A stretch of 60,067 nucleotides of DNA, the filler included, from Perkinsus olseni (taxonomy: Eukaryota), in the NCBI GenBank assembly GCA_013115125.1. It is 4 parts of 4 records of this genome, joined end to end, with 100 filler letters (N's around TTAATTAATTAA, not from the genome) between each part and the next. Parts side by side here need not be neighbours in the genome. Positions count along the whole stretch, not along the records: positions 15,085 to 30,053 come from JABANN010000713.1; 3 more parts are not named here. The stretch is one strand, 5' to 3'. Under the pieces are notes generated by a model, which worked only from the letters and a program-made list of their open reading frames with translations, made no database searches and was not told where the DNA came from. Positions within the stretch are counted from its first letter, which is position 1; each line of letters starts with the position of its first letter. The translations under genes and the position numbers were made by a program. Below are positions 401 through 44,827 of this stretch, piece by piece.

Positions 401-2188
401 GTAAGGACTGCAGGTCGCCGCTCTCTGAAACACTCCCCCACCTCCCTTCTTCGGCAAATCTTCAGCCTTGTACACCTTCAAGCAACAAATCCACAGCACC
501 GACCGTCGCCACAGCGCCAAAAATCACGTTAAAATTGAGCATGACCAGATTGAACTTGGAGTCGGGTGTCTGCAGTACCCTCTCAGTGATGGAGCTCACC
601 GCTTCATCCTCATCCGATACTAGACGGAATCCGCTAGGCACCTCGAGAGCAGTAAAGATCGTTATGATAATCACGCCCATACGACTTTTAAAACCACAGT
701 GCACGTACTGATATACATTCAGCCCCATCGAAAACAGGGCGGTCAGATTCCCATGTCTTGGGCATTCCTCTGGCCTATTTTCAACACACCGGCACTCGAT
801 GGGCTCGATTCCATGGCAGTTTGTGCGAGCTTATAGCCCAACGCTTACGGTTCCGGCTTAAACTCTCACCGATGTGCTCACTCGGGGAGTCTCTATAGCG
901 TTGAAATGCAGTGCGATCAGACAGTTCAGACAAAAGCTTTCCTGCGACCGTCAGTCCGCATCACTACATCGTCTCCCGGTCCATAGATACCAACGCTAAC
1001 ATTGACATATCCCCGCACATCACCGGGCTTCTCAGGGAAGGTCAGCGGCATCCACTGTCGCAACAGAGTATGGCGCACCAAGGAGTACCTCCATCACCAA
1101 TGACAACACCAACCACCTCCCCAAACAGCGCTCACACTCTGCTGAACCCAAACGTGCAGGCCCCAATCAGCTCGTCCTTCCGAATGGCGTTACGGTGCCA
1201 ACATTCCAGAGTTATCTGAGATGTGGGCACGTGCTGTTCCGATGGCTCACCGTCGACGAGTCGCCATCAACGCTCACGCAGGGCGTTCAATAGTCTGCTG
1301 CCCCTCCCTCATTTCAGCAGGCTTCCAGTATTTAATTCAACGTGTGAAAGACGATCCCTGGAGCGCTCTCGAAGCTCGGGAGAGGAAGTCTGTTGAACGC
1401 CCGGGCATTTTTCAAAAACCAAACCAAAGTTTACCCAACATAAGTCGGACAATGAAAAGGTCGAAGTACAAAACTCCGACAGTGGATGACTCCGTTAGGC
1501 TGTCTGATTTTACTCTCTTACCAGTGACGGTTTTAATTCGAATTCAAAATGCCACAGAAGGGGCTCAGCTATCTTTCCTCCCCTACAACTAGGAGACGAG
1601 GAACTCAAGGAGCTTCCACCGACAGTGGGCTATTCTGCTGCCGTCCCAGCGGTCATACCGCAACAAGGTGATGACAGAGATAATCATGAACAAAGGAATC
1701 GTATTTCAGATGACGATCATGAGTATCCGAGGTCAAGATGAAGGCAACTTTCCAGAGAAGACGCTCACTCCTACGCCAAGACGAGCTCGATGGGAATGCA
1801 CCTCAATAGATTGATCAGTACATGCTACAGTAATAAGCCACGTATTTCTACTCCAAGACCGCCAGCTCGCACGCAGTGAGCCGACCACTGCATGGCTACA
1901 GCCATAATCATGGTAAATTATTTTCACTGTGCGAGGGGAAGGCCGCCGCCTACCTTAGATCGTTTAAACTCAGCCTTAGCCAGGCTGCCATCGAACAGAA
2001 AGAAGCAGTTGAACGAGCAGCTAGCAGAAGCATTCTGGGAACTCGTCTTCTTTTCAACATCCCCTTCCTCTCCCGGGTAATCCACTATGACCTTCAAGTA
2101 CCTGCTCGACTCACTACATCACCGTCGTCTCGCCAATATTACGGATTTGGGAGCTCAGTGCTTCCCTCTGGCCTCCTAAGGGCGTATA
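401..2188 (-). CDS. Ferlin-family multi-C2-domain protein, partial and multi-exon. The 3' part runs off the contig; the 5' boundary is uncertain, with candidate upstream exons to about 3900.
   Basis: Manual splicing gives YALRRPEGSTELPNP|YLKVIVDYPGEEGDVEKKTSSQNASASCSFNCFFLFDGSLAKAEFKRSK|ITLECWHRNAIRKDELIGACTFGFSR|VYSLVRHTLLRQWMPLTFPEKPGDVRGYVNVSVGIYGPGDD...DEDEAVSSITERVLQTPDSKFNLVMLNFN|VYKAEDLPKKGGGGVFQRAATCSPY. This is a C2 domain, a FerI-like linker and the start of the next C2, as in ferlins. Introns are GT-AG. Confidence 0.8.
822..924 (-). mobile_element. Short retroposon (SINE or LINE 3' tail) family, copy A, diverged, in a ferlin intron
   Basis: Aligns by eye with 6975-7090, 16287-16400 and 22394-22556 (shared ccaacgcttacggttccggctta...gatgtgctca...tagcgttga.atgcagtgc.atcagacag). 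Confidence 0.7.
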
Positions 2189-5100: not shown

Positions 5101-5816
5101 CCCGCTTCGCAAGTGACAAGGGCGCGTTCGGAGATAGCTAAGTGAGGCTAGCGTGTGTTCCGGCTGGACAGGGTCCAGCGTGCTATCCTTGTTACAGGGA
5201 TGGCAGGCATCGAGACCGACCGAGCACACAACTCCCGTACAGGACGTGCTTAGCCTTGGCCTTAACAGCCACAGTTATTTTGGTCTTTTCCCAGAGACTC
5301 AATACGTCAAAATATAGTGAGGCTTGTGAGCTAGCTAAAAGCCAAAATACGAATGGAGTTCCTCCGGGAGAAAGCGTGCGGACTTGCACGACAGTGCAGT
5401 CAGCAGAACTCGAGACGAATGACTCCGATGAAGACGGGCAGACTTAACTGCCCGTGGCCCTCTCACGTACATTACCCTGCACTCATCTTGAACGTGAAGT
5501 CTGCTTGCTGTACTTGCGGTATTAAGGCCGTGTTAGCGACCAACGGATTGAGAGCACAACACTCTAGTCCCATCGTCTGGAATCCGATCTGTCATCTTCT
5601 TATCATCAGCGCTTCAGCTCAGCTTCAGCGTAGCTCCTTATCCAAGCAAGATAGGTTCAGTGGGATAATCTCCACAAGCGCCTCCGCCGGAGATGATCTT
5701 TGTTACAGCACACCCTGCTGATGACGAACAGCTCCCGAGATGAACTTGCCGAAGAAAGGCAGTACTTTTTCAACTCGGTACGTCGTATACGAACGAAACT
5801 AGCTGAAACGGATTAC

Positions 5817-8167
5817 TCATGTGCCACCACCAGAGAACGCTTCACTGTGCAATTTTGCCAGCGTCTCTTGCTCAGGCTCCACGTCTATCAATATACTCGC
5901 CCCCGTTGGGTTGAGGGGGTCGGGGAACTCTAGGCGACTCAGTTGCATGTGAGGGAACCCTTCGTTGTTCCTGACGATATCGAGTCCCCCTTCTGCGAAA
6001 TGTGCCTGAAGGGTTAGCAGCTCAGGGACGGCCAAGAACGATAACGCTTGATAATGGTAAAGGAGAGTGCCTTTGAGTCTATCCGTGAGTGACACGAGAA
6101 TAATATGAACGACACGCGAACACAAAATCAAGTATATGCCGTCCATAGCATAGCACGTTAGGTAAATAAATGGAAACCCAGGTGGTTAGCCTGAAGGACA
6201 GTCGTTCGCAAAGCGGCCAGAAAATGAGTCGTTCGAGTCGTCAAAAAGCCAAACTTGACTCGATAAAACGACGGAGATGAGAAGCGGGACAGAACCCCGG
6301 ACGGTATTCCTCTACGTAATCTTGTCTCAATTTTGTTAGCCAATCAAAATACTTCTGCCGCCGTATTGAGAACGAATCTTCGAGTTACCGTCTCATCATT
6401 CCAGACGACTTAATCGTACTGAGATCGCTGTCAAAGTTTCCGTATCGCAGAGCTCGGAGAATGGGCCCTCCACCCTCACTGCAACAAAGGCCGCGAGTAT
6501 CTCACCATGATGTAGCCAGGCTTCGACGGCGTGGCCATAACCTCATACAACAACAACCCGCCGGCACCGACCTCTACCAGTCTGAACTCGGTCCCAACGC
6601 TGGAGTCAGTCGGCGACGAGCATTCCACCTGGGAGGCAATGGCCTCGCGCTAGGTTGAAGATGCCTGCTCACCGATTGCCATTGTTGGTCATCTTTGGAC
6701 CACCGCATGCATGACTCGACCAGCCCGTAGTCGAGGGGCCGGCCGTCGTCGGTGAAGAAGGCGTTGGAGGGACGCGCTTGGGTGGGACGAGCTAGCAAGC
6801 GGTAAGTCTGGCGCAGGGAGTACCTGGTAGGGACCAGAAACTGGACGGGACGAAACTGGAGATGAAGATCATCGAAAAGGGGTAGTTGTCGGATGAACTC
6901 TTCCCGACTCGTCCTCGAAGACCAGAGCAGCAGCAGCAGCGGCAGCACAGACCGCGACGTTGCTGTATTCGCCCTGTGTGTGTGAGTTTACAGGCCAACG
7001 TCGGTCCCGGCTTAATTTGACTGGAAGCCAATGTGCTCTGTTGACGACTTTCTGCAGCGTTGACATGCAGTGCAGTCAGATAGATCGTCAAGACGCTTTG
7101 CTCTGCTTCCTCACGCTAGCCTTCATGTTATCGAGAAGGGGCGGCGGTCAGGCTGTACGTGCGCTCCTATCGACCGCCACCTGCTGTTCACAGCGACACC
7201 CCGGACGTACTCTCGGTAATGAGTTTTGAACTGCCGTGAGATGCTCTTGTCCAAGCACACCACACAGAGGCCCGAAACACCAACGTCAACATTGACCGGG
7301 AAGTGCCTGAAAATCGTCAGAAGTCATCAGCAGCGATTGTGGAGTGATTCCCCCACTCACAGTTTGCCATCCCTGAGCCTGTCGGCTGGCTGGCTTATTT
7401 CATCCGGCAATGGAAGATCACGTTTGATACGGTCGAGTTCCTCACTGTGACTAGACTGGGCATCATTGCCTCGATCGGGATCGTCGGGAGCCAAACATGG
7501 GGTAACTATCAGAAGCACACGACGAGAATGGCCTCCATTTGCCAGACCGATCCCTATTGAAATAAGATATTCTCGTGCTAGTCCGACTGTTTACGGCCTT
7601 AGACTTGAACTCCCATACACACGCCATCGAGAGGTGCTTATCGAGAGCACTCCTCCGCGGAGGAGAATAGGGTAACTCCAAGCCCATCAGCCCTGCCTTA
7701 AATCCGATTGGCTACGATGATCCGAGCGGCACAGTCCAATTGACGCACACACGGTCAAAGTCCTATGCGGTCGCTAGGGAACGAGGGGCGAAGTGAAAAA
7801 CGCGAAAATCGCGATGCCACTAGTGTTTTCCACATCACGGGTCGAACTCCATTGTTTTCGGCAAATTATCATACTTTAGTATTAAGACTGGTATATGATA
7901 AGTTTATCCTGAATAAAGAATAGGGTTGTAGACTAACGATGATGTTTTGGATGAAGATACTAATACGACAGCTGGCCTACAGGTCGTTGCTAGTGAGGGC
8001 CTGTCCAGCGTCTTCCCGTCACCCCTCAAGGACCACCCAGAGGGCTTGTACACGACACAGTAACGATCATCCCAGGAGTTGAAGACAACCCTCGGCAGCA
8101 AAGACGTATGCTTTGGCACGGGTACCCGAGACGAGAGGCGGCACGCAGTAAGTGAAAACAAGAACAT
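5817..8167 (-). CDS. RluA/RPUSD-family pseudouridine synthase-like protein, multi-exon, with divergent catalytic motifs
   Basis: Spliced reading: MFLFSLTACRLSSRVP...YCVVYKPSGWSL...KL|HFPVNVDVGVSGLCVVCLDKSISRQFKTHYRE|YSLRQTYRLLA...TEFRLVEVGAGGLLLYEVMATPSKPGYIM|AHFAEGGLDIV...PHMQLSRLEFPDP...GGGT*. Motif order matches RluA (VxKPxG; HRLDxxTSG; KxYxA; GRTHQIR; HPIVGD; LHAxxLxFxHP). Confidence 0.7.
6975..7090 (-). mobile_element. Short retroposon family, copy B, in an intron of the RluA-like gene
   Basis: (TG)5 followed by agtttacaggccaacg...ggcttaatttgactggaagcc...agcgttgacatgcagtgcagtcaga; homologous to copies A, C and D. Confidence 0.75.
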
Positions 8168-8310
8168 CTCTACCGTCAGAAGACGTTGACGAAGGCGCTG
8201 CTGTGCTCTCGAGACAAACGAAGGGTGCCACCGCGACGGTTTGCCACCGCTGTTATAGAGTTATTGTTGGCTATGGAAATTACGTAACTCTTACGGAAGG
8301 TCTCGAAAAC

Positions 8311-8379
8311 CGGCTTTGAGACTAACTGAGGCAGTAGTAGCGGCCCGCTACAGACTTTGAACTATAGAATCACACACAC
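8311..8379 (+). mobile_element. Diverged relative of the short retroposon family (3' tail only)
   Basis: cggctttgagactaactgaggcag ... gaactatagaatcacacacac resembles copy D cggcttcgagtctaactaagccag ... ggactataaactcacacgcac. Confidence 0.5.
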
Positions 8380-8616: not shown

Positions 8617-11600
8617 TGTGACAACGCAAGTGCGAGGAGTAGATGGGTGAGTGGTAATAACATTAGAGAGATAATGAAGGGAACTACAGCTTACGCAGCG
8701 TAACACAATGATATAGACAACAGGTCCTTAATGGAAGTCATCTCTGATGAACAGATTACCGATCAATCGGGCGAGCGCTATATCGCATCTCCCCTCCTTC
8801 GAAAGAAGATGCTCATAACAGCTTAAGATTGACGGTATGAACAGTTACAGGCTTGTTGTCTTTGTCACCGTCCTTGATAACTTCAACTCTGTTAGTTCCA
8901 ATATGTTGAACTACTCTCGCAGGAACCCACCTGCGTTGGAGCTTCGGAACAGTACCAGTAACACGTACTAGCACATCAAGCCCTGGCTTCAGCTTCCTTG
9001 AAGACGGGCTCTTAAATACCGACTGTAAGTAATTGTAAGATTCGTGGCATTCAATTGGTACTTCAGGTCTTATGCTCGGCTTAAATCTGAAGACCATCTC
9101 ATGAGGACTAACACCTCCCCTTCTTGACGATGGTGTTATATTATATTGATGAGCTGCTTCCTTTGCATACTGCATGAACGTATCGGCTGTCATTGTTATA
9201 TTGGCATTATGAGCTCTCAAGTATTCGTTTAAATATCTATGCCACCTTTCTATTTTACCATTGGCAAAACTAGCATTGATTGGAGTTACGATATGCGCCA
9301 CATTCCATTGCTCTAAAGCACTCTCCATTTCTTTACTCACAAACTGACTCCCATTATCACTATGTAAGATCAATGGCCTACGGTGGAACGTTTCGAAGAT
9401 TAACGTTAGGAAATCCTTGACGTTAGTCGACGTAGGAGCATTCATGCTAGGTCTTATCGACACGTAGTTTGAATGACTATCGATCGCCGTTATTGCATAA
9501 TATCGACTGGTTCCATCTGACAATTGGCGATATGGTCCACATATATCGATATGAAGTCTGTCCCAGCACTTAGGAGCTGGGGTTATTGAGTGTAACGGCA
9601 CTAACGGTTTCCGATCATTCGGGAATGCTTTCGCTGACGAGCATGTGCTGCACTTGAAATTATTACATTCTGATGCTAATCCGGGCATGTTTACCCATGT
9701 TTTCAGTTTTGCGAACTGTGCCGCACGACCTTCGTGATTGTGTGTTAATATCAACAATTTCTGTGCTCTAGATCGTGGAATATCGACTTTACCGCTTACT
9801 ATGGGGAATTCTTTTAACCATTCTTTTAGCATGGCTGACTTTTCTTTTCTAGCGCCAATGATTTGAATAGGCAGCGCGATATCTTCATCCTCGTTTTCCT
9901 GCTCAACAGCATGTATCACCTTATTAAATTGCACTAGTAACTCTTTTGGTATTCTCGATGGTATATCAGCCTTATTTTGTTGCGACGATACGTAATGAAC
10001 AACTAATGATATGTTGTATGTCAACTTTATATCTTCTATCAGTTGTAGCCGGCCTTCAATTGCGTTTCGGCATATCCCCTTTATATGTCTCCAGTTTCTC
10101 TCATCTGGTCGCGTCAGCCAGTGTTTGACTGAAATATTATCAACGTACAAGTGAATTGTTTTTGATTTTATATTGTATGCTCTCATGTAATCTATTGCTA
10201 ACTCGAGTCCTCTCAGGACTCCTTCGGTTTCGGCTACATTTATATGCCTCTTGCATCCTTCCTTTCTCAACCAGGCTCTGTCCTCTACCTCCTGATTTTG
10301 GAAGCAGAGAACTGCCGCTATTCCGTATGATGATGAATCGGTATACAACTGCCATTCCTGATCTGGCTGTATTCGCCATTGTCCATGGCATGGATCATTT
10401 TCTTTGATGTATGATGCAACATGTTTCCACAATTCTTGAACTTGATTTGGTAAATCATAGTCATACTGTGGATGATCCTTTGGTTTCGCTGCTGCGCTGA
10501 CACGAGTTAACATAGCCGCTACCAACCGCAACCATGAAGCGACGGGATAGACAGTCACTAACTTCCCAACGATTGACGCAAGCTCCGAGCGAGTCTTCGG
10601 AACCGTGTTCAACTCCTTCTCTATTGACTTTCCTCTCGTCCAGCGTCCGTCTTCCTCGACATGAATTCCTAGTAATGTCGATCCGGCCACGCGTTGAGGT
10701 GGTTTTGTATTGAATGAATTTTTTGACAATGATGACTGAACCTTTTCTAAATCATCTTCCGCGACTAGTATATCATCGACGTATTTCTTCGCTGGTTTAT
10801 TCGTTTCTGTTTCGTCTAATATCGTTGTAACGGCTTCGTCTAGGGCTTTGCCTGACACATTCAGACCGAAGCCTGCTCTCGTCATTTTATACGTTTGCTT
10901 ATCCTCTGGCAAATGTACGAATCTACAGCATTGGTATAATTGTTGTTCTGGTATTACATGTAGTTGCATATACGCATGCTTTATATCGACGATGAAGCTA
11001 TGTTCAGGATCGTATGTACGCCATGTTCTGATCACTTCTGTTGCTGATGTTGGCTTTCCTTTCGAGTTAGGCATAGATTCTATTCTTTGGTTTAACCACG
11101 TATAATCTAGACAGACTCTCACGGGTGTACTACGCCCTAACGATACGACAGGAAGGGTTGTAATCCAGCCTTTAACATCTCTAGGTTCTACTGGTTCAAA
11201 GTAGCCTCTACTGATCATATCCTCTATCGATTTATGGTATAATTCCAACTCTGCGCTTGATAATTTCTGTATTGCTCCTGGATAATATGGCGGTTTGTAG
11301 ACAACTGATTCCGGTTTACTCTGCCATTTCCATTGCACTTCCCATCTGTAGCTATCAGGGCCTATTTCCTTCCGCTTCACTATCAGATCTGGTTGATCTA
11401 TTACTAATTCTTTTCCTTTGTCATGATGCACTATATTAGACGACGATGAAGATCTTCTACGCTTCGCAATACTCAAGTCATTGCGTTCTGGTGATACTTC
11501 GTCAGTTGATTTCTTATCCTGTGGTACCACAATTCCAAGATTTATTGCGTGGGGTTTACGTTCTCGATTCTTTCTATCATTATCGTCATTTATCGATAGC

Positions 11601-13445
11601 TCAATTGCTTCCTCGCTATGGGGTGTTGATTTGATAACGAGTGTACCACACGAGGCAACCCAGTCCATTCCGAAGATGGCACTAATATTCCTAGAACCGA
11701 CAGTTAATATATTTGCTTTTTGTAACACCCATGGCTTGACTGTAACACCACGCAAACTTAGTACCGGACAATTATCAAACTTATAAGCTTCAATCTGTCC
11801 TGTGACACTTCTCAGCAATAGTTTGTGCTTCCGATATTGGCCGTCGACCTGAATTACACTCATTAATCTGAGCAGCTCTTGACTCACTAAGCTCACTGTA
11901 CTACCGGTATCAATCATCCCGTAGCAAACATCACCGCTATCATCACGGCAATTACTACTGCTATCATCACTCCTTGGTGATGTGAAAACAACAGAGAGAT
12001 AACGGCTCTCATTCTCATTCAACATCCCTTTTATTACTTTATTACTATCATTATTATCACCGCGCTGGGATGGGCACTGCCTGGACAGATGTCCTCGGCC
12101 CCCGCAACAGAAGCATCTCACTGATGACTGTTGATCATTATTTTTATATATGGCCTTCCCTCGAAGATGGAATGGCCCAGCTCGGCCCTTTCCTTTCCAA
12201 TAACGGCCTTTGCCCTTATATCCTTTAGCTTTGCCTTTACCGGAAGGCTGATAGGCTGAAACGGCAGCCACTGTCTCGGGCTCGGTCACCACAATGCTCT
12301 TAGCGAGCCTCAGGCATCCTTCAACGATGTCCCCTCGAGCTTCCCAGAGACTTTTCCACTGACTTTTCAACGCCGGAAGACCGGGAATATCGCTTGGCAG
12401 TCCTTCCCAGAACATCAAGCAGGCAGCCGCATTCTGCCACGTACGGTCCAACGATATGCTGGAAGGCCTCGCAGACGATATCAGCCTTTGAAGATCGGTC
12501 AAGTACTCAGCGGGACTCTCACCGGGACGCAGCTTACGGCCGATAAACGTATGCCAGCATTTGAAGATGTCTTCACCGTATCGTTCTATCAACACCGCCT
12601 TGGCCTTCTGGTAGAGCTTTTTATCATCAGCGACGCTGATGGTAGATGATGTCGGACAAACGTTGGCTTGGACAGTAGTGTAAGCACCACCTTGTAGGTT
12701 TAAGCGCAGAAGCGCGAACCTCTTGCCAGCCGGGACACGATCGCCCAACATTTCCAGCGTGGAGTCGAACCGTGCCAGCCACTGTACGGGATCCTCTTTA
12801 CCAGTAAACGGACTCGGCATTATGGCGAAGGAGCGAAGGGACCCATCGATGGCTGATGTTGACGATGATGATGATGATTTCACCGAAGGAACAGGAGTAG
12901 TCTTAGTCTTATCGCCACCGCCACCGCTTTGAACAGAATGGTCATCACTCTTATCACCATATTCTTGTTCGGTCTCTTCTTCTTGTCTCTCCTCCTCTTC
13001 TTCTCCTTCCTCATCACCTCCGGTCACATCTCCTCCTTTATTCTTCTCGACACCATCACCGGTGGCCTCCTCGTCACCCAAGGCGGCGACGAAGTCGTAG
13101 AAGGGCTCGTCGACAGCTAGGTCAGCCGGGTCGTAGGAGTCGCTCGAAGTCGATGGTCTGGGCACCATGTAGTGTGACAACGCAAGTGCGAGGAGTTGAT
13201 GTAGTGATGCTGGTTACAAGGGTCCTCGGCGCCGAAGGAGGTAAAGTTGAGATCATAGTGGTTCTAGTAGTACTGATTACAGAAGCTGTCCACGATATGA
13301 GAGACGCGAGCTCCCAGCGTGTTTCGAGAAGCGAAAGGGGAGGGAATCATAAAATCGGGTATCCCGGTAGAAACTGCGGGGGTATTCTTGAGCTCTTAGG
13401 ATATTTCAAGTATTTGCCCGGGGCGCGCGGCTAGCGAGCGTCACA
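8617..13445 (-). mobile_element. LTR retrotransposon with PR-RT-RH-IN order (Ty3/gypsy or BEL/Pao type)
   Basis: Putative 5' LTR 13445-13173 (TGTGAC...GTCACA). PBS TGGTGCCCAGAC starts at 13167. PPT GAAGGAGGGGAGA directly precedes the putative 3' LTR 8787-8617 (TG...GTCACA). A single gag-pol ORF lies between them. Confidence 0.9.
8813..13168 (-). CDS. Gag-Pol polyprotein (zinc knuckle, aspartic protease, reverse transcriptase, RNase H, DDE integrase)
   Basis: Uninterrupted ORF, first ATG at 13168. Motifs: CFCCGGRGHLSRQC knuckle; MIDTGS protease; DIKHAY...GFGL...YVDD RT; LYTDSS...E...YVDN...NKAD RNase H; HIDICGP/HSDNG/IERWH integrase. Confidence 0.95.
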   Translation of the reverse strand: MVPRPSTSSDSYDPADLAVDEPFYDFVAALGDEEATGDGVEKNKGGDVTGGDEEGEEEEERQEEETEQEYGDKSDDHSVQSGGGGDKTKTTPVPSVKSSSSSSTSAIDGSLRSFAIMPSPFTGKEDPVQWLARFDSTLEMLGDRVPAGKRFALLRLNLQGGAYTTVQANVCPTSSTISVADDKKLYQKAKAVLIERYGEDIFKCWHTFIGRKLRPGESPAEYLTDLQRLISSARPSSISLDRTWQNAAACLMFWEGLPSDIPGLPALKSQWKSLWEARGDIVEGCLRLAKSIVVTEPETVAAVSAYQPSGKGKAKGYKGKGRYWKGKGRAGPFHLRGKAIYKNNDQQSSVRCFCCGGRGHLSRQCPSQRGDNNDSNKVIKGMLNENESRYLSVVFTSPRSDDSSSNCRDDSGDVCYGMIDTGSTVSLVSQELLRLMSVIQVDGQYRKHKLLLRSVTGQIEAYKFDNCPVLSLRGVTVKPWVLQKANILTVGSRNISAIFGMDWVASCGTLVIKSTPHSEEAIELSINDDNDRKNRERKPHAINLGIVVPQDKKSTDEVSPERNDLSIAKRRRSSSSSNIVHHDKGKELVIDQPDLIVKRKEIGPDSYRWEVQWKWQSKPESVVYKPPYYPGAIQKLSSAELELYHKSIEDMISRGYFEPVEPRDVKGWITTLPVVSLGRSTPVRVCLDYTWLNQRIESMPNSKGKPTSATEVIRTWRTYDPEHSFIVDIKHAYMQLHVIPEQQLYQCCRFVHLPEDKQTYKMTRAGFGLNVSGKALDEAVTTILDETETNKPAKKYVDDILVAEDDLEKVQSSLSKNSFNTKPPQRVAGSTLLGIHVEEDGRWTRGKSIEKELNTVPKTRSELASIVGKLVTVYPVASWLRLVAAMLTRVSAAAKPKDHPQYDYDLPNQVQELWKHVASYIKENDPCHGQWRIQPDQEWQLYTDSSSYGIAAVLCFQNQEVEDRAWLRKEGCKRHINVAETEGVLRGLELAIDYMRAYNIKSKTIHLYVDNISVKHWLTRPDERNWRHIKGICRNAIEGRLQLIEDIKLTYNISLVVHYVSSQQNKADIPSRIPKELLVQFNKVIHAVEQENEDEDIALPIQIIGARKEKSAMLKEWLKEFPIVSGKVDIPRSRAQKLLILTHNHEGRAAQFAKLKTWVNMPGLASECNNFKCSTCSSAKAFPNDRKPLVPLHSITPAPKCWDRLHIDICGPYRQLSDGTSRYYAITAIDSHSNYVSIRPSMNAPTSTNVKDFLTLIFETFHRRPLILHSDNGSQFVSKEMESALEQWNVAHIVTPINASFANGKIERWHRYLNEYLRAHNANITMTADTFMQYAKEAAHQYNITPSSRRGGVSPHEMVFRFKPSIRPEVPIECHESYNYLQSVFKSPSSRKLKPGLDVLVRVTGTVPKLQRRWVPARVVQHIGTNRVEVIKDGDKDNKPVTVHTVNLKLL

Positions 13446-15200: not shown

Positions 15201-16255
15201 CTAACTCACTGAAACAGTCTCAGTCTGACTCTCAGTGACGCTCAGGGAGACTTGGTGACTAAACGAGTCTGTCATAATGCAAGTGCCCCTCCTACGGTCA
15301 GGGGGCCATTTGATGACGCTGTATTGCTGCGGCGTGTCGTCGAATAGTTCGTACTTGAGGGGAAGCTCCTTGGGCTCGGGATGGTCCAGTCTCCACTGAG
15401 CCTGTAGTAGATCGTGGTTAGCCCTCTTCGCGCTGGCTAGCATGTGAGTAGGAATACCTCCTCACTTCGTCTGTGAGCATGTGAGTGTTTCCATTGCAGC
15501 TCTCCCTTCTCGTTCACTATGGTCGCGTGTGACCCTGATTGCAATTGCGTTTTTTCGTACACAATTTCCTGACCGAATTGAATTGACCCCAGACCAAAAT
15601 CGTGAACTACTTGAAGGGCAATTTCAGAGCAGCATTGAGGCTAAGTGTAGCAGCAGTGTGATGATTGTATCGCTGATCCTATCTCGCCCCGTGTAATCCA
15701 GGGAACACAATACCCAGATATAGGCGAGGTTAATCTCAATTGATTATCCAATCTCAATCAATCATTCACAGTTGAATAATAGATCACTTAAGCCTAGCAG
15801 TAGACAATATCACAATACATTGCGTGGCGAGCGACAGCCGACACGACAACACCCCGATAAGAAGCTACGTTCAAGTGGCGGATGACAAGAAGACAGCAGA
15901 TGAAAGATCGGATTCCAGATGGCAAGACCCGGGTGTTGTGTTCTCAATCAGCCAGTCTCTTCACGACAGTATTATGACGACGAATGACAAAATAGCGAAA
16001 CATAACTATAGTGGGCACGTGACGCCGATTCCTCTTCTACTGTGCTGCTCACCATGCCCGTGTTGATGAAGCGCGAACTCCTTCAGAACCCTGAAAGGTG
16101 ATCTCAGTTTCGTCACTTTCAGTGCTTGTCGCCCCTTACAAAGGGTCACCTTCTTGATAGGTCACAGTGGGTCCGGGCCTTTGTAGAACTGATTGCAAAT
16201 CACCCATACGTGGCACAACTATCCAGGGAAGAACTGGGCAGAGCGCTTGTACATG
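15201..16255 (-). CDS. Hypothetical multi-exon protein fragment
   Basis: Phase-compatible GT-AG exons: ...LQRPGPTVTYQEGDPL|VLKEFALHQHGH|ASAKRANHDLLQAQWRLDHPEPKELPLKYELFDDTPQQYSVIKWPPD. No domain recognised. Confidence 0.35.
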
Positions 16256-16286: not shown

Positions 16287-16400
16287 CTGTGTGTGAGTTT
16301 ATAGTCCAACGCTTGCGGTTCCGGCTTAGTTAGACTCGAAGCCGATGTGCTCAGTTGGGGACTTTCTGTAGCGTTGACATGCCATGCAATCAGGGAGATT
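16287..16400 (-). mobile_element. Short retroposon family, copy C, with 12-bp TSD
   Basis: Flanked by ATCGTTCAACGT (16275-16286) and ATCGTTAAACGT (16401-16412), 11/12 identical. (CA)n tail on the minus strand. Confidence 0.85.
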
Positions 16401-21656: not shown

Positions 21657-24600
21657 AGCGAATCAGAGGAGGTCAGATTTCACTCTATGACGGAAGCCAT
21701 TTTTGAAGTGTGCTGTTCTCGTCACGTTTTCAATCGATCAGTCGTGCGACCAGGAGTTCTCGGGGGTCTGCCGCGACAAGGAGAGGATCAAGGAGAAGGT
21801 CCAGCCTGGCCTCTGCCACCAATAGCGAAGGCAAGTTCTCTACCGTCACGCGCCACGAAATTATGGACTCAGGCACTGATCTGGTGGATGTGGCCAGAGT
21901 GTTCTCTAGCGACGACGAGGAGCTCTCGGAGATGAGCGAATCGCCGATCACTTCTAGGTGGGCGAGCGCGCCGTACTTTGGTTGGAATCCTCATGTGACA
22001 GATACGAACGAGGGCGTAGAAGGACGAGCATGGAAGATTTTCCGAAGGCATCACCCTCGTCCGCTGAAGGATCGTCGGTGGCTCGCCGGCGAAGATCAAG
22101 TAAGCTATTGATAGTGTAATTGTAGCATAAAATGAGAATGGTGGTGGTACTGAGTGGAAGCTGGCATTGGAGATATGTGTGAACTGGTGCGAGCTCACGA
22201 TTCTAAATGAGGAGAAATTTTAATAGAAAAGATCGTGGGAAAATTCGGGTGATTGAGGAAGTACGTGAAAAATTGTGAATGTGGAGATTCTGATTTTTTG
22301 CAGTATTTTACCGCTAGGAAAAAACGATAGGCGGTGAAAATACAAACTGGCGATCCGCTCTACAGCTTGGCGGGATTGACTTCGTTGGACTCGGAAAGGA
22401 AGCTTCTCTGGTTTGGTATACCCCTGAGGGAAGCTTCTCGACCATCTGTCTGATTGCACTGCATGTCAACGCTACAAGAAGTCCCCTACTGAGCACATCG
22501 GCTTCGAGTCTAACTAAGCCAGAACCGTAAGCGTTGGACTATAAACTCACACGCACTCGTTGGACTCGTTCTTTCATGTCCCCCATTATGAGTGAATCCT
22601 GGGGGCTGCCATTTTTCTTCATAGACTTCATTTTAATACCTACTTATTGCATGCATAGGAACTAGGAGTATTACTATGTGGTAATGAGCACTGCTTTTTT
22701 ATGGGAGGTTAACAACTGCGTTTTTACTGCTGCATTTAATAGAAGGAGATAATGATAAGAATTTGAATGGGTGGGGCGAATGGCAAGATCCACCTTTCAG
22801 GTCGTCCTCCTAGTCGGTCAAGTGCACTGTCATCAGCGTCAGTGGACAAGGTAGTCGAGCCGCGATTTCGCGCGCCACGAAATTATCTGGGCTGCTCACA
22901 TCTTGTTGCATGACGTCGCCGTCGTTGGAAGAGTCGGTCTCGATTTTCCCCCGCTGGACTAATCGTCTTTTCGACATTCATAAGTTCGTGAATTCACAAA
23001 TCGCCCACTTCTCTGGTTACGTTGGTGACGGGTTGCCTCAGACTCTCTTCGCTTCACCTGAGGATGATGGTGCGAAGTCGCGGCGCGTGACGATATCTCC
23101 TCTGAGCTATCTGAGGCCTCTCAAGGAAGCACAGACGAGGCGAAGATTCTCTAAGGTAAGCTCATGGTATCCTGAGGTTCACTATGGGCGTAGAAAGTTA
23201 GCCTGTTGCGTGAGGAACACGGATGAGCATAAGATATCAGGTTAATACCGTGCTGGGGATCTTTCTACTGGTAGCAGCTATGGCAGCTTACTGGTGAGTC
23301 AAGGTGTATCTTCCAGTGTTGCTTGATCAATCTCGAAGCTCATAGGTATCTTCCGGGACCGCGGCTGCGTTATTGTGATGGTCTCTCTTCTTCGGCTGTG
23401 GACTGTGAGCCCTGTCCAGCTCACGCGGTCTGCCAAGGGTATACGATGAAGTGCAACCCCCTGTTCAAACGAGATGGCGACGTTTGTATCCGAGACGAGC
23501 ATTTGTAAGACCTTCGTCATCCGGCGCAGTAGTACTGGATAGGAGGTGGATACTCTGAGGCTTGGCGCGATCTCAGCGTGACGCTGGCAGCGTCTGCCTT
23601 TCTTCAGTGTTGGGATTAGATAGCCGCCACCCTCCTTACAGTAGTTGCGTCAATTCATTATTATAATATGATAGTTCGACGACCGCCGTTCTCGCCTCGC
23701 CATGACGTGGGATAGTGGCCTCAATCTGCATTTCGCACCTCTTCCGTATCACGGCACTTGCTGTCTATTATATAGATATCCTAAGACATCTTCTCGTCGT
23801 TCTTACTTTGTTCTTCCCGAGGTACATGGTGTCTCATCACATGGCGGCGTCATTGGCGGATCATCTAGCTGATCGGAGAGGCGACCATGAATGCTACAAG
23901 ACGCGGTATCAGCTGGATGCGGCTGAAGCCAAGAGGTGATAGCAGTAGTGGTAGTAATGGTACTAGTAGGAAACCTCTCGAGAGAATTCTAGTGAGCTTA
24001 GAAAAATTGTCGTGAAAATTCTCACGAGGCTGTGCTGACAGCTCTGAAATTTGTTAAGTCTTTCTGTCACGGCGGATTTTGTCTCCCCTTTGTCGTCCGT
24101 TGCCTGCAGATATGCTTCACTAGTAGGTTTGGCTCACGCGCTGAGAGCCGCCGGGAAAAGTTGTGGCTGAGCGTGTCTTTGGACCTCTCAGACATCCTGT
24201 TGTCCTTCCTGCTCAGATATCTTCGAGAGAGATGTTGGGAAGCTCGAAGGCTCGGCAAAGCCGACTTCGAAACAGCATTCAACCTCATGTGTAATACCAA
24301 AGCGTGGGGAATATAATCCAGAGTTGGTCTATGTCGCTCCGCTGTCGTCCGCATTTTTTGGGAGTTCGGCGGAGAAGTACTGTGGCAAACTAATGACTCA
24401 CTGACTGTCGGTGGTAGACGAACAATAGCATCGACTGCTTCGTGAAATACTCGGGAGTAGTTTCTAGCGACCAACATCGGTACCGGAAACTTGGTTCTAG
24501 ACATATCGTTTAAGTGTCCGCATTTGTTGGGCATGTTACGTTGGTCAGTATCGGAGTCCCTTCCCAACGAGTATGGCAGCCAAGTGGTGTATACCACAGG

Positions 24601-26249: not shown

Positions 26250-27647
26250 TAGCCCATGTTTTGGGCAATGTACGGTATACGTATGTAGATGAGATGTGTT
26301 ACATGATGTGTGCTGTTCAGAAGACTCCCCCACACTGCAGGCTGCTTTCGTTTTATCAACTCAGTGACTCGTACTTCTGTTAAGAGACTGGCTGATTGAG
26401 AACACAACACCCGGGTTTCGCCATCTGGAAGCCGATCGTCCATCTGCTGTCTTCTTGTCATCCGCCGCTTAGCTAAGCTTCAGCGTACAGTAGCTTCTTG
26501 TCTGAGCAAGATAGGATCAGCGATATAAAGATTGTACTTCCATCTCTTGTGAGAATCAGCCGGGGAACCGCAGGGCTATCGATTGGTGATTCTATTGCGC
26601 CCGATGTGACAGCCTCGCGGCAGCCAGAGAGGGCGCCTTTGACCACCTCAAGCCTCAAAGATCTCCTTGCCGGATCTTGACGCGGATATGCTCACTTCAG
26701 GCGATCTCGAATCGAGATCGCCCAGAGTGAACCGAATCGAGATTCTCGATCTACAAGCATGGTTAGCCAAGTAATCGCGTGGCAACCGCTTGGGAGATAA
26801 TGTGGACAGGGAGCATCTTTCTCGGAAAAGACTTGTGTTAGCATTTGGGAACCCGAGACACTGTCTTTGGTGACTTATTCTATTTTCACTGCTAGTGAAG
26901 TTCCGGACATGACGAATCAGGATTCACCAGTTCAGCTTCTCTGTAGCAACTGCGCTGTGGCTACGTTGCTATATGGAATAGCTATCGGCAAATTTGTACT
27001 CGGCGGTCTGAGATAGAGGAGTCGCGCGTTGAGGCTAGACCGTCGTTAAACGTTATGAAACTGGATAGGATGAAGCTCGCTAAGCTTCATGGTGAAGCTC
27101 GGCTGTTGAAGAGTATCGAAGCTTACTCTGCTTTACTCTGCTGGGGACTTGCTTCATCTTGCTAACTCTCTGTTTTCTTAGTGTGTGACATAGCTACGGA
27201 CAGTTAGTTTCTACCATATTAGTGGTATACACGGTGTATAATACACCCTTCTGAAGAAGGTTTCTTCTGTAGTCCACCGTATCTTGCGTTTCTACGAGTA
27301 CGTCTCAGCCACCGAGTTCAACAACATGGCGTGACCTTGCGCATGCGTGCAAGTCCGTGCAAGGCGCCGTGGAGAGTTTGCGACTGTCGCTTCTCCGTTG
27401 TTGCTCATAGTCAACGCCCCGCGAGAAGGATTGTGAAGCTTATCTACCTAGTTTTATTGGGGGGGGGCTGGAGTATTACCTATGCACGCATGCACAAGAC
27501 GATCGGCGGCGCATAATAAGTAACAGCGATAAAGGATTCCTGTTTTGTGAATCTCCCCTTGTGATGGTCCGAGAGATGGGACGGGGTAGCACTTGTGATT
27601 GACTTTTCCTCTCAGTGTATTGAGGATGTGGTAAGTAGCCCTACACT

Positions 27648-29270
27648 ATGAGTGGCGACACTAAGCGCGTGCTGAGTTCAGCAAGCATCAAGAAGGAATA
27701 TTCATGGAAGGACCTGTATGGCAATGAATGCTTCTACTACAAGGACCCTATGAAGGGAGCGGTTCCTTTTATCCTATTACAAGAGCTGTGTGAACGCCTG
27801 GCGTGCTACGGTCTCACTCCGAACCTCCAGACGTTCCTCAAGGAGTATCTGGGTTACACCGACACTTTGGCGAACTCGTACGTATTATCATTCAACTCGA
27901 TCCTGTACGTGACCCCTCTGCTCTCGGCGGTTATCTCGGATACTCTCCTCGGCCTCTACTATACAATAGTAATCTTCTCATTCGTCTACATGGCGGGCTT
28001 GGCCCTACTTACGGTATCCTCGGTGAAATCGATCAGCCAACCATGGATGATCCACCTTTCTCTACTCGTGCTGATCGCCTTCGGTGCTGGTGGGATCAAG
28101 AGCTGTGTTAATGTAATGGGAGCCCAGCAGTTCCATCCTGAGCATCACAGGGACCTCATAACACGCTTTTACACCTACTTCTACGCAGCCATCAATCTCG
28201 GAGCGATTGCCCGTGGGATCGTCACTCCGATCCTGCTTGAAGAAGCTGGATTCACGGCAAGCTTCACCTTTCCGCTGGCGTTATTCATCCTAGCAACGGT
28301 CGTTTTCATAACTGGAGACGTCATGGATCGATACGTCAAGCCCAAACCCCAGGGGTCAGCTGTGCTGCAGATTCTTAAAGTGGTGGTGTACTCTGTCTTC
28401 AAGTGCTCCTTAGAGAAGAATAAAGTTTCCCGCGGTGGGAAATTCGAGGACAACTTCATTGAAGACGCCAAAGCTGTATTCACACTCCTACCGATGTTCG
28501 TCTTGATCATACCATTCTGTATGGCCTACAACAACATGACGACCGCTTTCCTCACTCAAGCCAAGAAAATGGATCGTGCTACGTTCGGCTGGAACATGCC
28601 CCCCGCGATGATCCAAAACGTAGATCCTATTGCGGTGGTCATCAGCTCCTTCGTGGTGGACTCCTTCCTCTTCCCGTATCTACGGAAGCATGATTGGATG
28701 CCCGAGCCATTGGTCAGGTTCTGCATAGGTTCGCTCTTCGGAGCGGTGGCTTTGGCTTGTGCCTTGGTCGTTGAATACCAGATAAAATCACAGCCCCTAT
28801 TCACTATATCGGTTTGGTATCAAGTTCCACAGTTCTGGATGATCGCCCTCGGTGAGATCTTCCTAATGTCGACCTCTTACGAAGTGGCCTTTACGTATTC
28901 ACCGGTCTCTCTGAAGGCTGTAGCCTCGGCATTCAACCTGTGCTTCTTCGCTATTGCTAGTGCACTATCTGCCGTACTGTTCTCCCTCTGCCAGCCGTGG
29001 TTGCCGGACTTCGATCCTGCCCTTCCCATTGAGGAGTCTTATAAGGATGCTCATTATGATTACTACTACTACCTCCTCATCGGGCTTTGCCTGCTGGGCT
29101 CGATCGGGGCTATACTCAGTGTCCCCTATTTCAACAAGGTTAAGAAGAAGAGCACTTTACGTCGAGCGGGAGTGAAAAGTCATGGTGGAAAGAGACCCCC
29201 ATCATCAAGTTTCGCGGAATCTCTCGCCGAAGGAGCCATCCGCAGGAGATCGGTGGCATCGATGGCTTGA
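27648..29270 (+). CDS. POT/PTR family proton-dependent oligopeptide transporter, intronless
   Basis: 540-aa ORF with ExxER motif (QELCERLACYG), GAGGIKSCV...GAQQF, FYTYFYAAINLGA, YQVPQF...GEIF...SYEVAFTYSP, and about 12 TM segments. Confidence 0.95.
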   Translation: MSGDTKRVLSSASIKKEYSWKDLYGNECFYYKDPMKGAVPFILLQELCERLACYGLTPNLQTFLKEYLGYTDTLANSYVLSFNSILYVTPLLSAVISDTLLGLYYTIVIFSFVYMAGLALLTVSSVKSISQPWMIHLSLLVLIAFGAGGIKSCVNVMGAQQFHPEHHRDLITRFYTYFYAAINLGAIARGIVTPILLEEAGFTASFTFPLALFILATVVFITGDVMDRYVKPKPQGSAVLQILKVVVYSVFKCSLEKNKVSRGGKFEDNFIEDAKAVFTLLPMFVLIIPFCMAYNNMTTAFLTQAKKMDRATFGWNMPPAMIQNVDPIAVVISSFVVDSFLFPYLRKHDWMPEPLVRFCIGSLFGAVALACALVVEYQIKSQPLFTISVWYQVPQFWMIALGEIFLMSTSYEVAFTYSPVSLKAVASAFNLCFFAIASALSAVLFSLCQPWLPDFDPALPIEESYKDAHYDYYYYLLIGLCLLGSIGAILSVPYFNKVKKKSTLRRAGVKSHGGKRPPSSSFAESLAEGAIRRRSVASMA

Positions 29271-31446: not shown

Positions 31447-44239
<12,793 letters not shown>

Positions 44240-44568: not shown

Positions 44569-44827
44569 TAGAGGTGGGCGATAGTACGGGTACGGTCTAG
44601 TACGGTACGGGTACGAGTACGGCTCCGTACTAACCGCACTACCCGTCGCAGCGGTTCCCAAGTACCGTAGTAGTACGCCGTACTCGAAGTACGGCGTAAT
44701 TTAGTACACGTATGCGTTGTTTGATATATTTAATACGTACTAGGTCTCCGTACCCGTACTAGGTTGACAGTGTGAAACGTACTGCGTACCGTACTTTCCT
44801 CGACCCCAGTACGGTTGCCCAACTCTA
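44569..44827 (-). mobile_element. hAT-type MITE, copy 2, about 330 bp upstream of the PKG ATG
   Basis: TIRs TAGAGGTGGGCGA / TTGCCCAACTCTA; perfect 8-bp TSD CAAGATTC (44561-44568 and 44828-44835). Confidence 0.92.

Follow-up and report, generated by a model that had tools for sequence, protein, structure and literature searches.

I-group non-LTR retrotransposons comprise the I, Nimb, Ingi, R1, Loa and Tad1 elements and are defined by their layout. An RNase H domain usually lies between the reverse transcriptase (RT) and the C-terminal knuckle in I, Ingi, Tad1 and Loa, and is missing from other clades of the group. PMC3747384 describes TAA repeats at the end of the I element and a short repeat at the end of UnaL2 from eel, as well as pairs of SINEs and LINEs with a common 3' end, in which short and numerous copies bear the tail of a LINE. 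A conserved hairpin with a bulge in its stem is found in the 3' tail of UnaL2 and of ZfL2-1 and ZfL2-2 from zebrafish, all of them L2-clade elements (PMC1636434, PMC4176376). According to these papers, retrotransposition of UnaL2 depends on the bulged base, and the tail of the element is recognised by its own ORF2.

The genome of Perkinsus olseni contains short, numerous repeats that likewise carry a LINE tail. They are not a new short element, but the cut-off tails of an ordinary LINE. Very probably, an autonomous APE-type LINE of I-group type, whose lineage was seen here only in Perkinsus, left them as dead copies truncated at the 5' end. Unlike the SINE-LINE pairs described in PMC3747384, the Perkinsus copies consist of truncated 3' UTR that belongs to the LINE itself, and they have neither an independent head nor a fixed 5' end. 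No paper on this tail family was found in the literature on Perkinsus retroelements, within a search whose scope left out most of the subscription literature. An abundant short repeat of this shellfish parasite is tied to a LINE parent, and the value of this link lies mainly in repeat annotation.

Copies in the window and in the genome

The window, that is, the whole stretch of 60,067 nucleotides analysed, is made up of four contig pieces with N spacers between them, and has copies A, B and E on one contig (G000:C3027) and C and D on another (C3028). The first-pass annotation had listed these five as homologous, and the searches bear this out. With copy D as the blastn query, copies A-D were recovered with identities of 80-89% (E 4e-22 to 3e-42). 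A profile of 41 genome copies, from which C and D were left out and to which A, B and E never belonged, found A-D at E 3e-29 to 3e-49, together with E and two further copies, while the best match in the reversed window had an E of 0.8. Copies A and B extend about 15-20 nt further 5' than first listed. The features are collected in the table.

Features of the LINE-tail copies in the 60-kb window
Feature	Position	Strand	Remarks
Copy A	820-943	-	~124 nt; blastn and profile search; first listed as 822-924
Copy B	6976-7104	-	~129 nt, family A; blastn and profile search; first listed as 6975-7090
Copy E	8309-8379	+	Diverged tail fragment; profile E 0.0015
Copy C	16287-16400	-	114 nt; 12-bp duplication with one mismatch
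Intron enclosing copy D	22100-22800	+	GT..AG; joint 22099->22801, runs X7 and X8
Left target-site duplication of D	22382-22393	+	12 bp, exact
Copy D	22394-22556	+	Last 163 nt of the LINE 3' UTR; 5'-truncated insertion
Conserved 3' hairpin in D	22507-22540	+	22507-22514 pairs with 22533-22540
Spacer and short, nearly fixed (CA)n tail of D	22541-22556	+	
Right target-site duplication of D	22557-22568	+	12 bp, exact
Extra short tail copy, not listed before	32175-32222	-	Family-B profile E 2e-6, family-A profile 2.4e-5
Extra diverged copy, not listed before	38567-38687	+	Profile E 5.8e-6

In the 39.9-Mb genome, copy D used as a query gave at least 40 scored matches among 173 candidates, an 18-nt tail motif had at least 94 exact matches (against none for a control motif), and the fetched loci held at least 151 distinct tails, all of these counts being lower bounds. 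The copies are clustered, since seven lie in the 60-kb window and none turned up in loci that were picked arbitrarily and amount to 74,294 bp. The nearest-neighbour identity of 41 copies ranges from 78 to 98%, so that the family comprises both old and fairly young insertions.

Of the 94 motif matches, 93 yielded copies (one was not fetched), 63 with their best match in family A and 30 in family B, an assignment which is ambiguous for the shortest copies. Two copies at contig edges were dropped, and the remaining 91, which have 5' flank, show lengths that run continuously from 20 nt to the longest of 808 nt, with a median of 115 nt; the 3' end is fixed, and the 5' end is variable. The simple repeat at the 3' end is short and nearly fixed in length, as the alternating run that follows the CTCACAC anchor measures 4 nt in 38 of the 93 copies and at most 6 nt in 89. 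The variable 5' ends and microsatellite-like (CA)n tail noted in the first copies therefore hold for the family.

In 3 of the 93 copies (L164, L003 and L163; G000:C1070, C2616), the truncation point is immediately preceded, on its 5' side, by another tail, an arrangement that template jumping or repeated insertion may have produced. Further element sequence occurs within 500 nt of 17 of the 93 copies, some of which are single copies that have been split. Other LINE lineages of this genome (L252, L258, L248, L249 and L119) have (CA)n, (CAA)n or (AAG)n tails and different 3' ends, and the CA tail alone is for this reason no marker of the family. At L117 (C2636) and L121 (C3206), LINEs with (CAA)n tails run into the threonine-codon repeats of mucin-like frames, junctions that hint at microhomology between tail and target.

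The LINE parent and its relatives

The start of copy D is extended in the 5' direction by many copies, of which those of 200-385 nt have their own target-site duplications, and the walk reaches a locus (C1025) whose frame ends in a C-x2-C-x7-H-x4-C (CCHC) knuckle. Another locus in this walk, C1189, is 97% identical over 245 nt and holds an open 293-aa frame with a YADD motif. Over 53% of this frame, it is 95% identical to P0001, a protein labelled Perkinsus olseni with an RVT_1 domain (E 1.6e-22), so that a predicted 'hypothetical protein' is largely retrotransposon. The extension of the copies, first proposed as a way to find either an RT-encoding parent or a tRNA/5S-derived head, leads to a LINE ORF2. 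Continuity is given by C2938, where a single copy runs from ORF2 into the tail with 332 nt from the stop codon to the tail end, which sets the 3' UTR at about 330 nt. In family B (C2788), which is 57% identical at the amino acid level, ORF2 is joined to the same tail across an insertion, and the middle of the UTR is its own. A relative that bears the label P. chesapeaki shows 58% identity.

No full-length family-A element was found in the assembly, in which the best match to P0001 covers residues 713-879 only, and the parental ORF1 and APE consequently rest on P0001, a chimeric gene model. The endonuclease of P0001 is not called by Pfam, and only the end of the domain is present, as read by homology to the sister elements described below. 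P0001 matches the ORF1 of one of these sisters (C213) at 30%, the gene model not including the knuckle part.

The first-pass annotation had left the choice between a SINE and a LINE tail. The LINE tail stands; it is very unlikely that most short copies are instead a SINE with a tRNA or 5S head that borrows the LINE tail. The median copy length of 115 nt would suit such an element, as would the tail common to several families and a third tail type (C2361, C2718, C3189 and C2648) for which no parent was traced. All extended copies of families A and B, however, are collinear with the LINE UTR, and the 5' ends defined by duplications range from about 25 to 380 nt. In the Rfam comparison that had been proposed, no copy was matched, ARAGORN gave no match on the window copies, and the copies of the family show neither a Pol III head (tRNA, 5S or 7SL) nor a fixed 5' end; a candidate head beside one tail turned out to be a separate repeat of about 120 bp. 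Remnants of a DNA transposon or MITE, or chance similarity, are extremely improbable: nothing was found in their favour, the copies have one fixed and one variable end with duplications of variable length, the tail motif and its control differ by 94 matches to 0, and the transposon or MITE reading is already refuted by a tail continuous with a reverse-transcriptase frame.

With the repeats read as truncated LINE copies, the type of LINE can be approached through C2636 and C213, which are its nearest intact relatives in this genome (29-30% amino acid identity). Both contain RVT_1, and both contain Exo_endo_phos_2 (PF14529) and RNase_H according to Pfam. The ORF2 of these sisters follows the order APE-RT-RNase H-C-terminal CCHC knuckle. 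The ORF1 of C213 shows three cysteine knuckles, which were read by eye and are not called by Pfam, and CCHC-type knuckles were likewise read by eye in the ORF1 of P0011, a relative from P. chesapeaki. In a quick tree of 42 rows with no labelled references, C2636, C213, P0001 and the P. chesapeaki relative P0002 form one lineage (SH-aLRT 99), the deeper forks being open, and this lineage stands apart from P0003 and P0004 (CR1/L2-like) and from the L1-like rows, labels that are our own reading. Identity between the lineage and non-Perkinsus matches is 22-33%; the named matches include one R1-labelled and one BS-labelled protein, and the endonuclease matches include the R1Bm and TRAS1 structures.

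The ORF2 order of the sisters and the short-repeat tails are features shared with the I group, as the apparent knuckles of ORF1 may be, and by these general criteria the layout would be I-group-like rather than RTE or CR1, the quick tree not assigning it to a named clade. The RTE/CR1-like machinery first invoked for these repeats does not agree with the apparently knuckled ORF1 and the RNase H of the sisters, nor with the separation of the lineage from the CR1/L2-like rows. Family A differs from the usual I-group layout in that RNase H has been lost: it aligns with the sisters on both sides of the domain, the domain itself is absent, and a motif there is possibly its relic.

The 3' hairpin and a proposed mechanism

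The conserved hairpin of the tail has a stem of 8 bp with a UAA bulge, topped by a short GC stem and a variable loop. In 118 of the 151 tails (the other 33 having no locatable left arm), the stem pairs are kept in 107-118 copies per position, at least two rows being mis-anchored. C2636 and C213, whose protein identity to the parent is about 30% and whose tails are (CAA)n, carry the same hairpin at their 3' ends; both had been identified by protein similarity, with no use of the hairpin. Compensatory changes in these sisters replace A-U by G-C in both and C-G by U-A in one. Two-sided changes affect 2 of 11 pairs, a score reached by 23 of 500 shuffles, and this modest covariation amounts to two lineages (three cells) in an alignment (A1) picked partly by its pairing pattern. 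In the sisters, the hairpin folds at z -2.8 and -2.3; the folds of D and C are no better than shuffles (z -0.8 to +1.2). Among 26 loci examined, several of which stop before the 3' UTR, 21 have an RT frame and only C2636 and C213 of these carry the hairpin; these RNase H-bearing sisters are also only 2 of the 44 hairpin-pattern matches.

A different structure had been drawn for the best-preserved copies, namely a CAACGCT/AGCGTTG pairing around a GGCTT..AAGCC hairpin, and depending on the span, folding of copy D gives either this structure or the conserved one. The earlier structure does not find support in the family. Of 53 family-A copies, 12 have its GGCTT arm and 31 have GGCAA instead, and its outer pairing, compatible in 46-50 of the 53 copies per position, shows no two-sided change among the pair types listed; no such arm was seen in the sister lineages. 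Upstream in the UTR, a weak consensus fold was obtained from 13 of the 17 loci tried, with single-sequence z values of -1.95 to +0.78 against rough doublet shuffles.

The Perkinsus hairpin resembles those of UnaL2, ZfL2-1 and ZfL2-2 (PMC1636434, PMC4176376) in being a conserved 3' tail hairpin with a stem bulge. It differs from these L2-clade hairpins in its 8-bp stem, its 3-nt UAA bulge and the short (CA)n tail that follows, as well as in being nearly unchanged across lineages of about 30% protein identity.

By analogy with stringent LINEs, the following mechanism can be proposed. The parent would encode ORF1 followed by APE-RT-CCHC lacking RNase H, and its 3' UTR of about 330 nt would finish with the bulged hairpin and a short (CA)n stretch. 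Its ORF2 may bind its own RNA through the 3' hairpin, as work on stringent LINEs suggests (PMC4176376, PMC1636434). A putative endonuclease would make nicks staggered by the 8-15 bp seen in the duplications, and reverse transcription, as in stringent LINEs, would be primed at the nicked target from the fixed CA end, with 1-5 bases of tail-target pairing perhaps sometimes assisting. Judging by the lengths of the copies, it would usually halt after 50-200 nt.

It has also been considered, as an unlikely extension, that the hairpin is an RT-recognition signal shared by Perkinsus LINEs that are about 30% alike and have (CA)n or (CAA)n tails, and that loss of RNase H may explain the many short copies. 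If such a signal were shared, the LINE lineages could cross-mobilise each other. It is speculation to link the loss of RNase H to the very short, SINE-like copies of this branch, which number well over a hundred. The natural compensatory variants of the hairpin, together with lineages with and without RNase H, constitute a small natural comparison for RNA recognition by stringent LINEs.

Insertion sites and neighbouring features

Duplications of 8-15 bp flank 32 of the 91 copies, compared with 1-3 of 91 in six shuffles, and are undetectable at the other 59. RNA-mediated insertion with target-site duplications, as first proposed, is therefore upheld for the family. The 12-bp duplications reported for copies C and D are exact only in D; in C, one of the 12 positions is mismatched and the left side reads CGTTT instead of CGTTG. 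No duplication is visible by eye at copies A and B.

The idea that insertion is directed by sequence, either to CGTTG-like sites through microhomology or to tRNA genes, is very unlikely. In its favour, the duplication of D resembles the element's own end; among the 25 exact duplications, however, CGTTG is present in one, that of D itself, and when one mismatch is allowed it is present in 3 of 32, two of which are C and D. The insertion sites have no sequence consensus. The AC overlap between tail and target is modestly greater than expected (mean 1.24 nt vs 0.68 nt simulated, p ~0.007 under a simple null); this overlap, however, involves the CA tail and amounts to zero in 13 of 25 cases, and selection may have raised its mean, as an overlap lengthens a duplication and so helps it to pass the 8-bp cut-off. 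As for tRNA genes, individual copies are found within or next to tRNA-like sequence, but tRNAs are not enriched over the control: at the default score, 90,728 bp around copies hold 4 and the control of 134,061 bp holds 4, and at a relaxed score the counts are 20 and 33, respectively.

The two loci that had raised targeting to tRNA genes, a candidate rejected for this lack of enrichment, are L033 (C1025), where the copy starts just after the 5' half of a tRNA, and L036 (C2872), where the copy appears to interrupt tRNA-like sequence in antisense. In the window, the sole Rfam/ARAGORN match is a tRNA-Gln gene at 42120-42191 (-), unrelated to the copies.

Three copies had been described as intronic. 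Copy D does lie inside a spliced intron: the GT..AG joint around it is present in two of the four runs compared, which are RNA at a guess, a status supported by neighbouring GT..AG joints. For copy C, no spanning joint was found among the joints listed, and none of these corresponds to an empty site lacking D. A contig of the diverged run X9 covers 22522-22844, and D is thus probably shared by that run. The copies could be used as strain markers if some of them are polymorphic.

Several other features were noted in the window. Copy E is placed about 430 nt past the end of an LTR retrotransposon with an open 1466-aa frame (8813-13213, -) that includes a zinc knuckle, RT, RNase H-like and integrase regions. 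A second dispersed repeat family, 72-92% alike, is found at 5546-5668, 15873-15964 and 26379-26528, and DNA contig depth is high at 15584-16082, in the region of this family. The sequence at ~27380-27510 was tried and rejected as the head of a SINE partner: it resembles by eye a separate repeat family of about 120 bp, which has numerous matches across the genome and whose ends are fairly uniform, these matches end before the tail, and no link to the LINE tail was seen. It is followed by an intronless frame for a POT-family transporter (27639-29270, +). Two pairs of inverted repeats were also observed, one at 37471-37726 and 44569-44827 (259 bp, 93%) and the other at 32224-32382 and 33679-33836 (160 bp, 92%). 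The latter pair spans about 1.6 kb and adjoins the short tail copy that ends at 32222, as a DNA transposon inserted in the tail might do.
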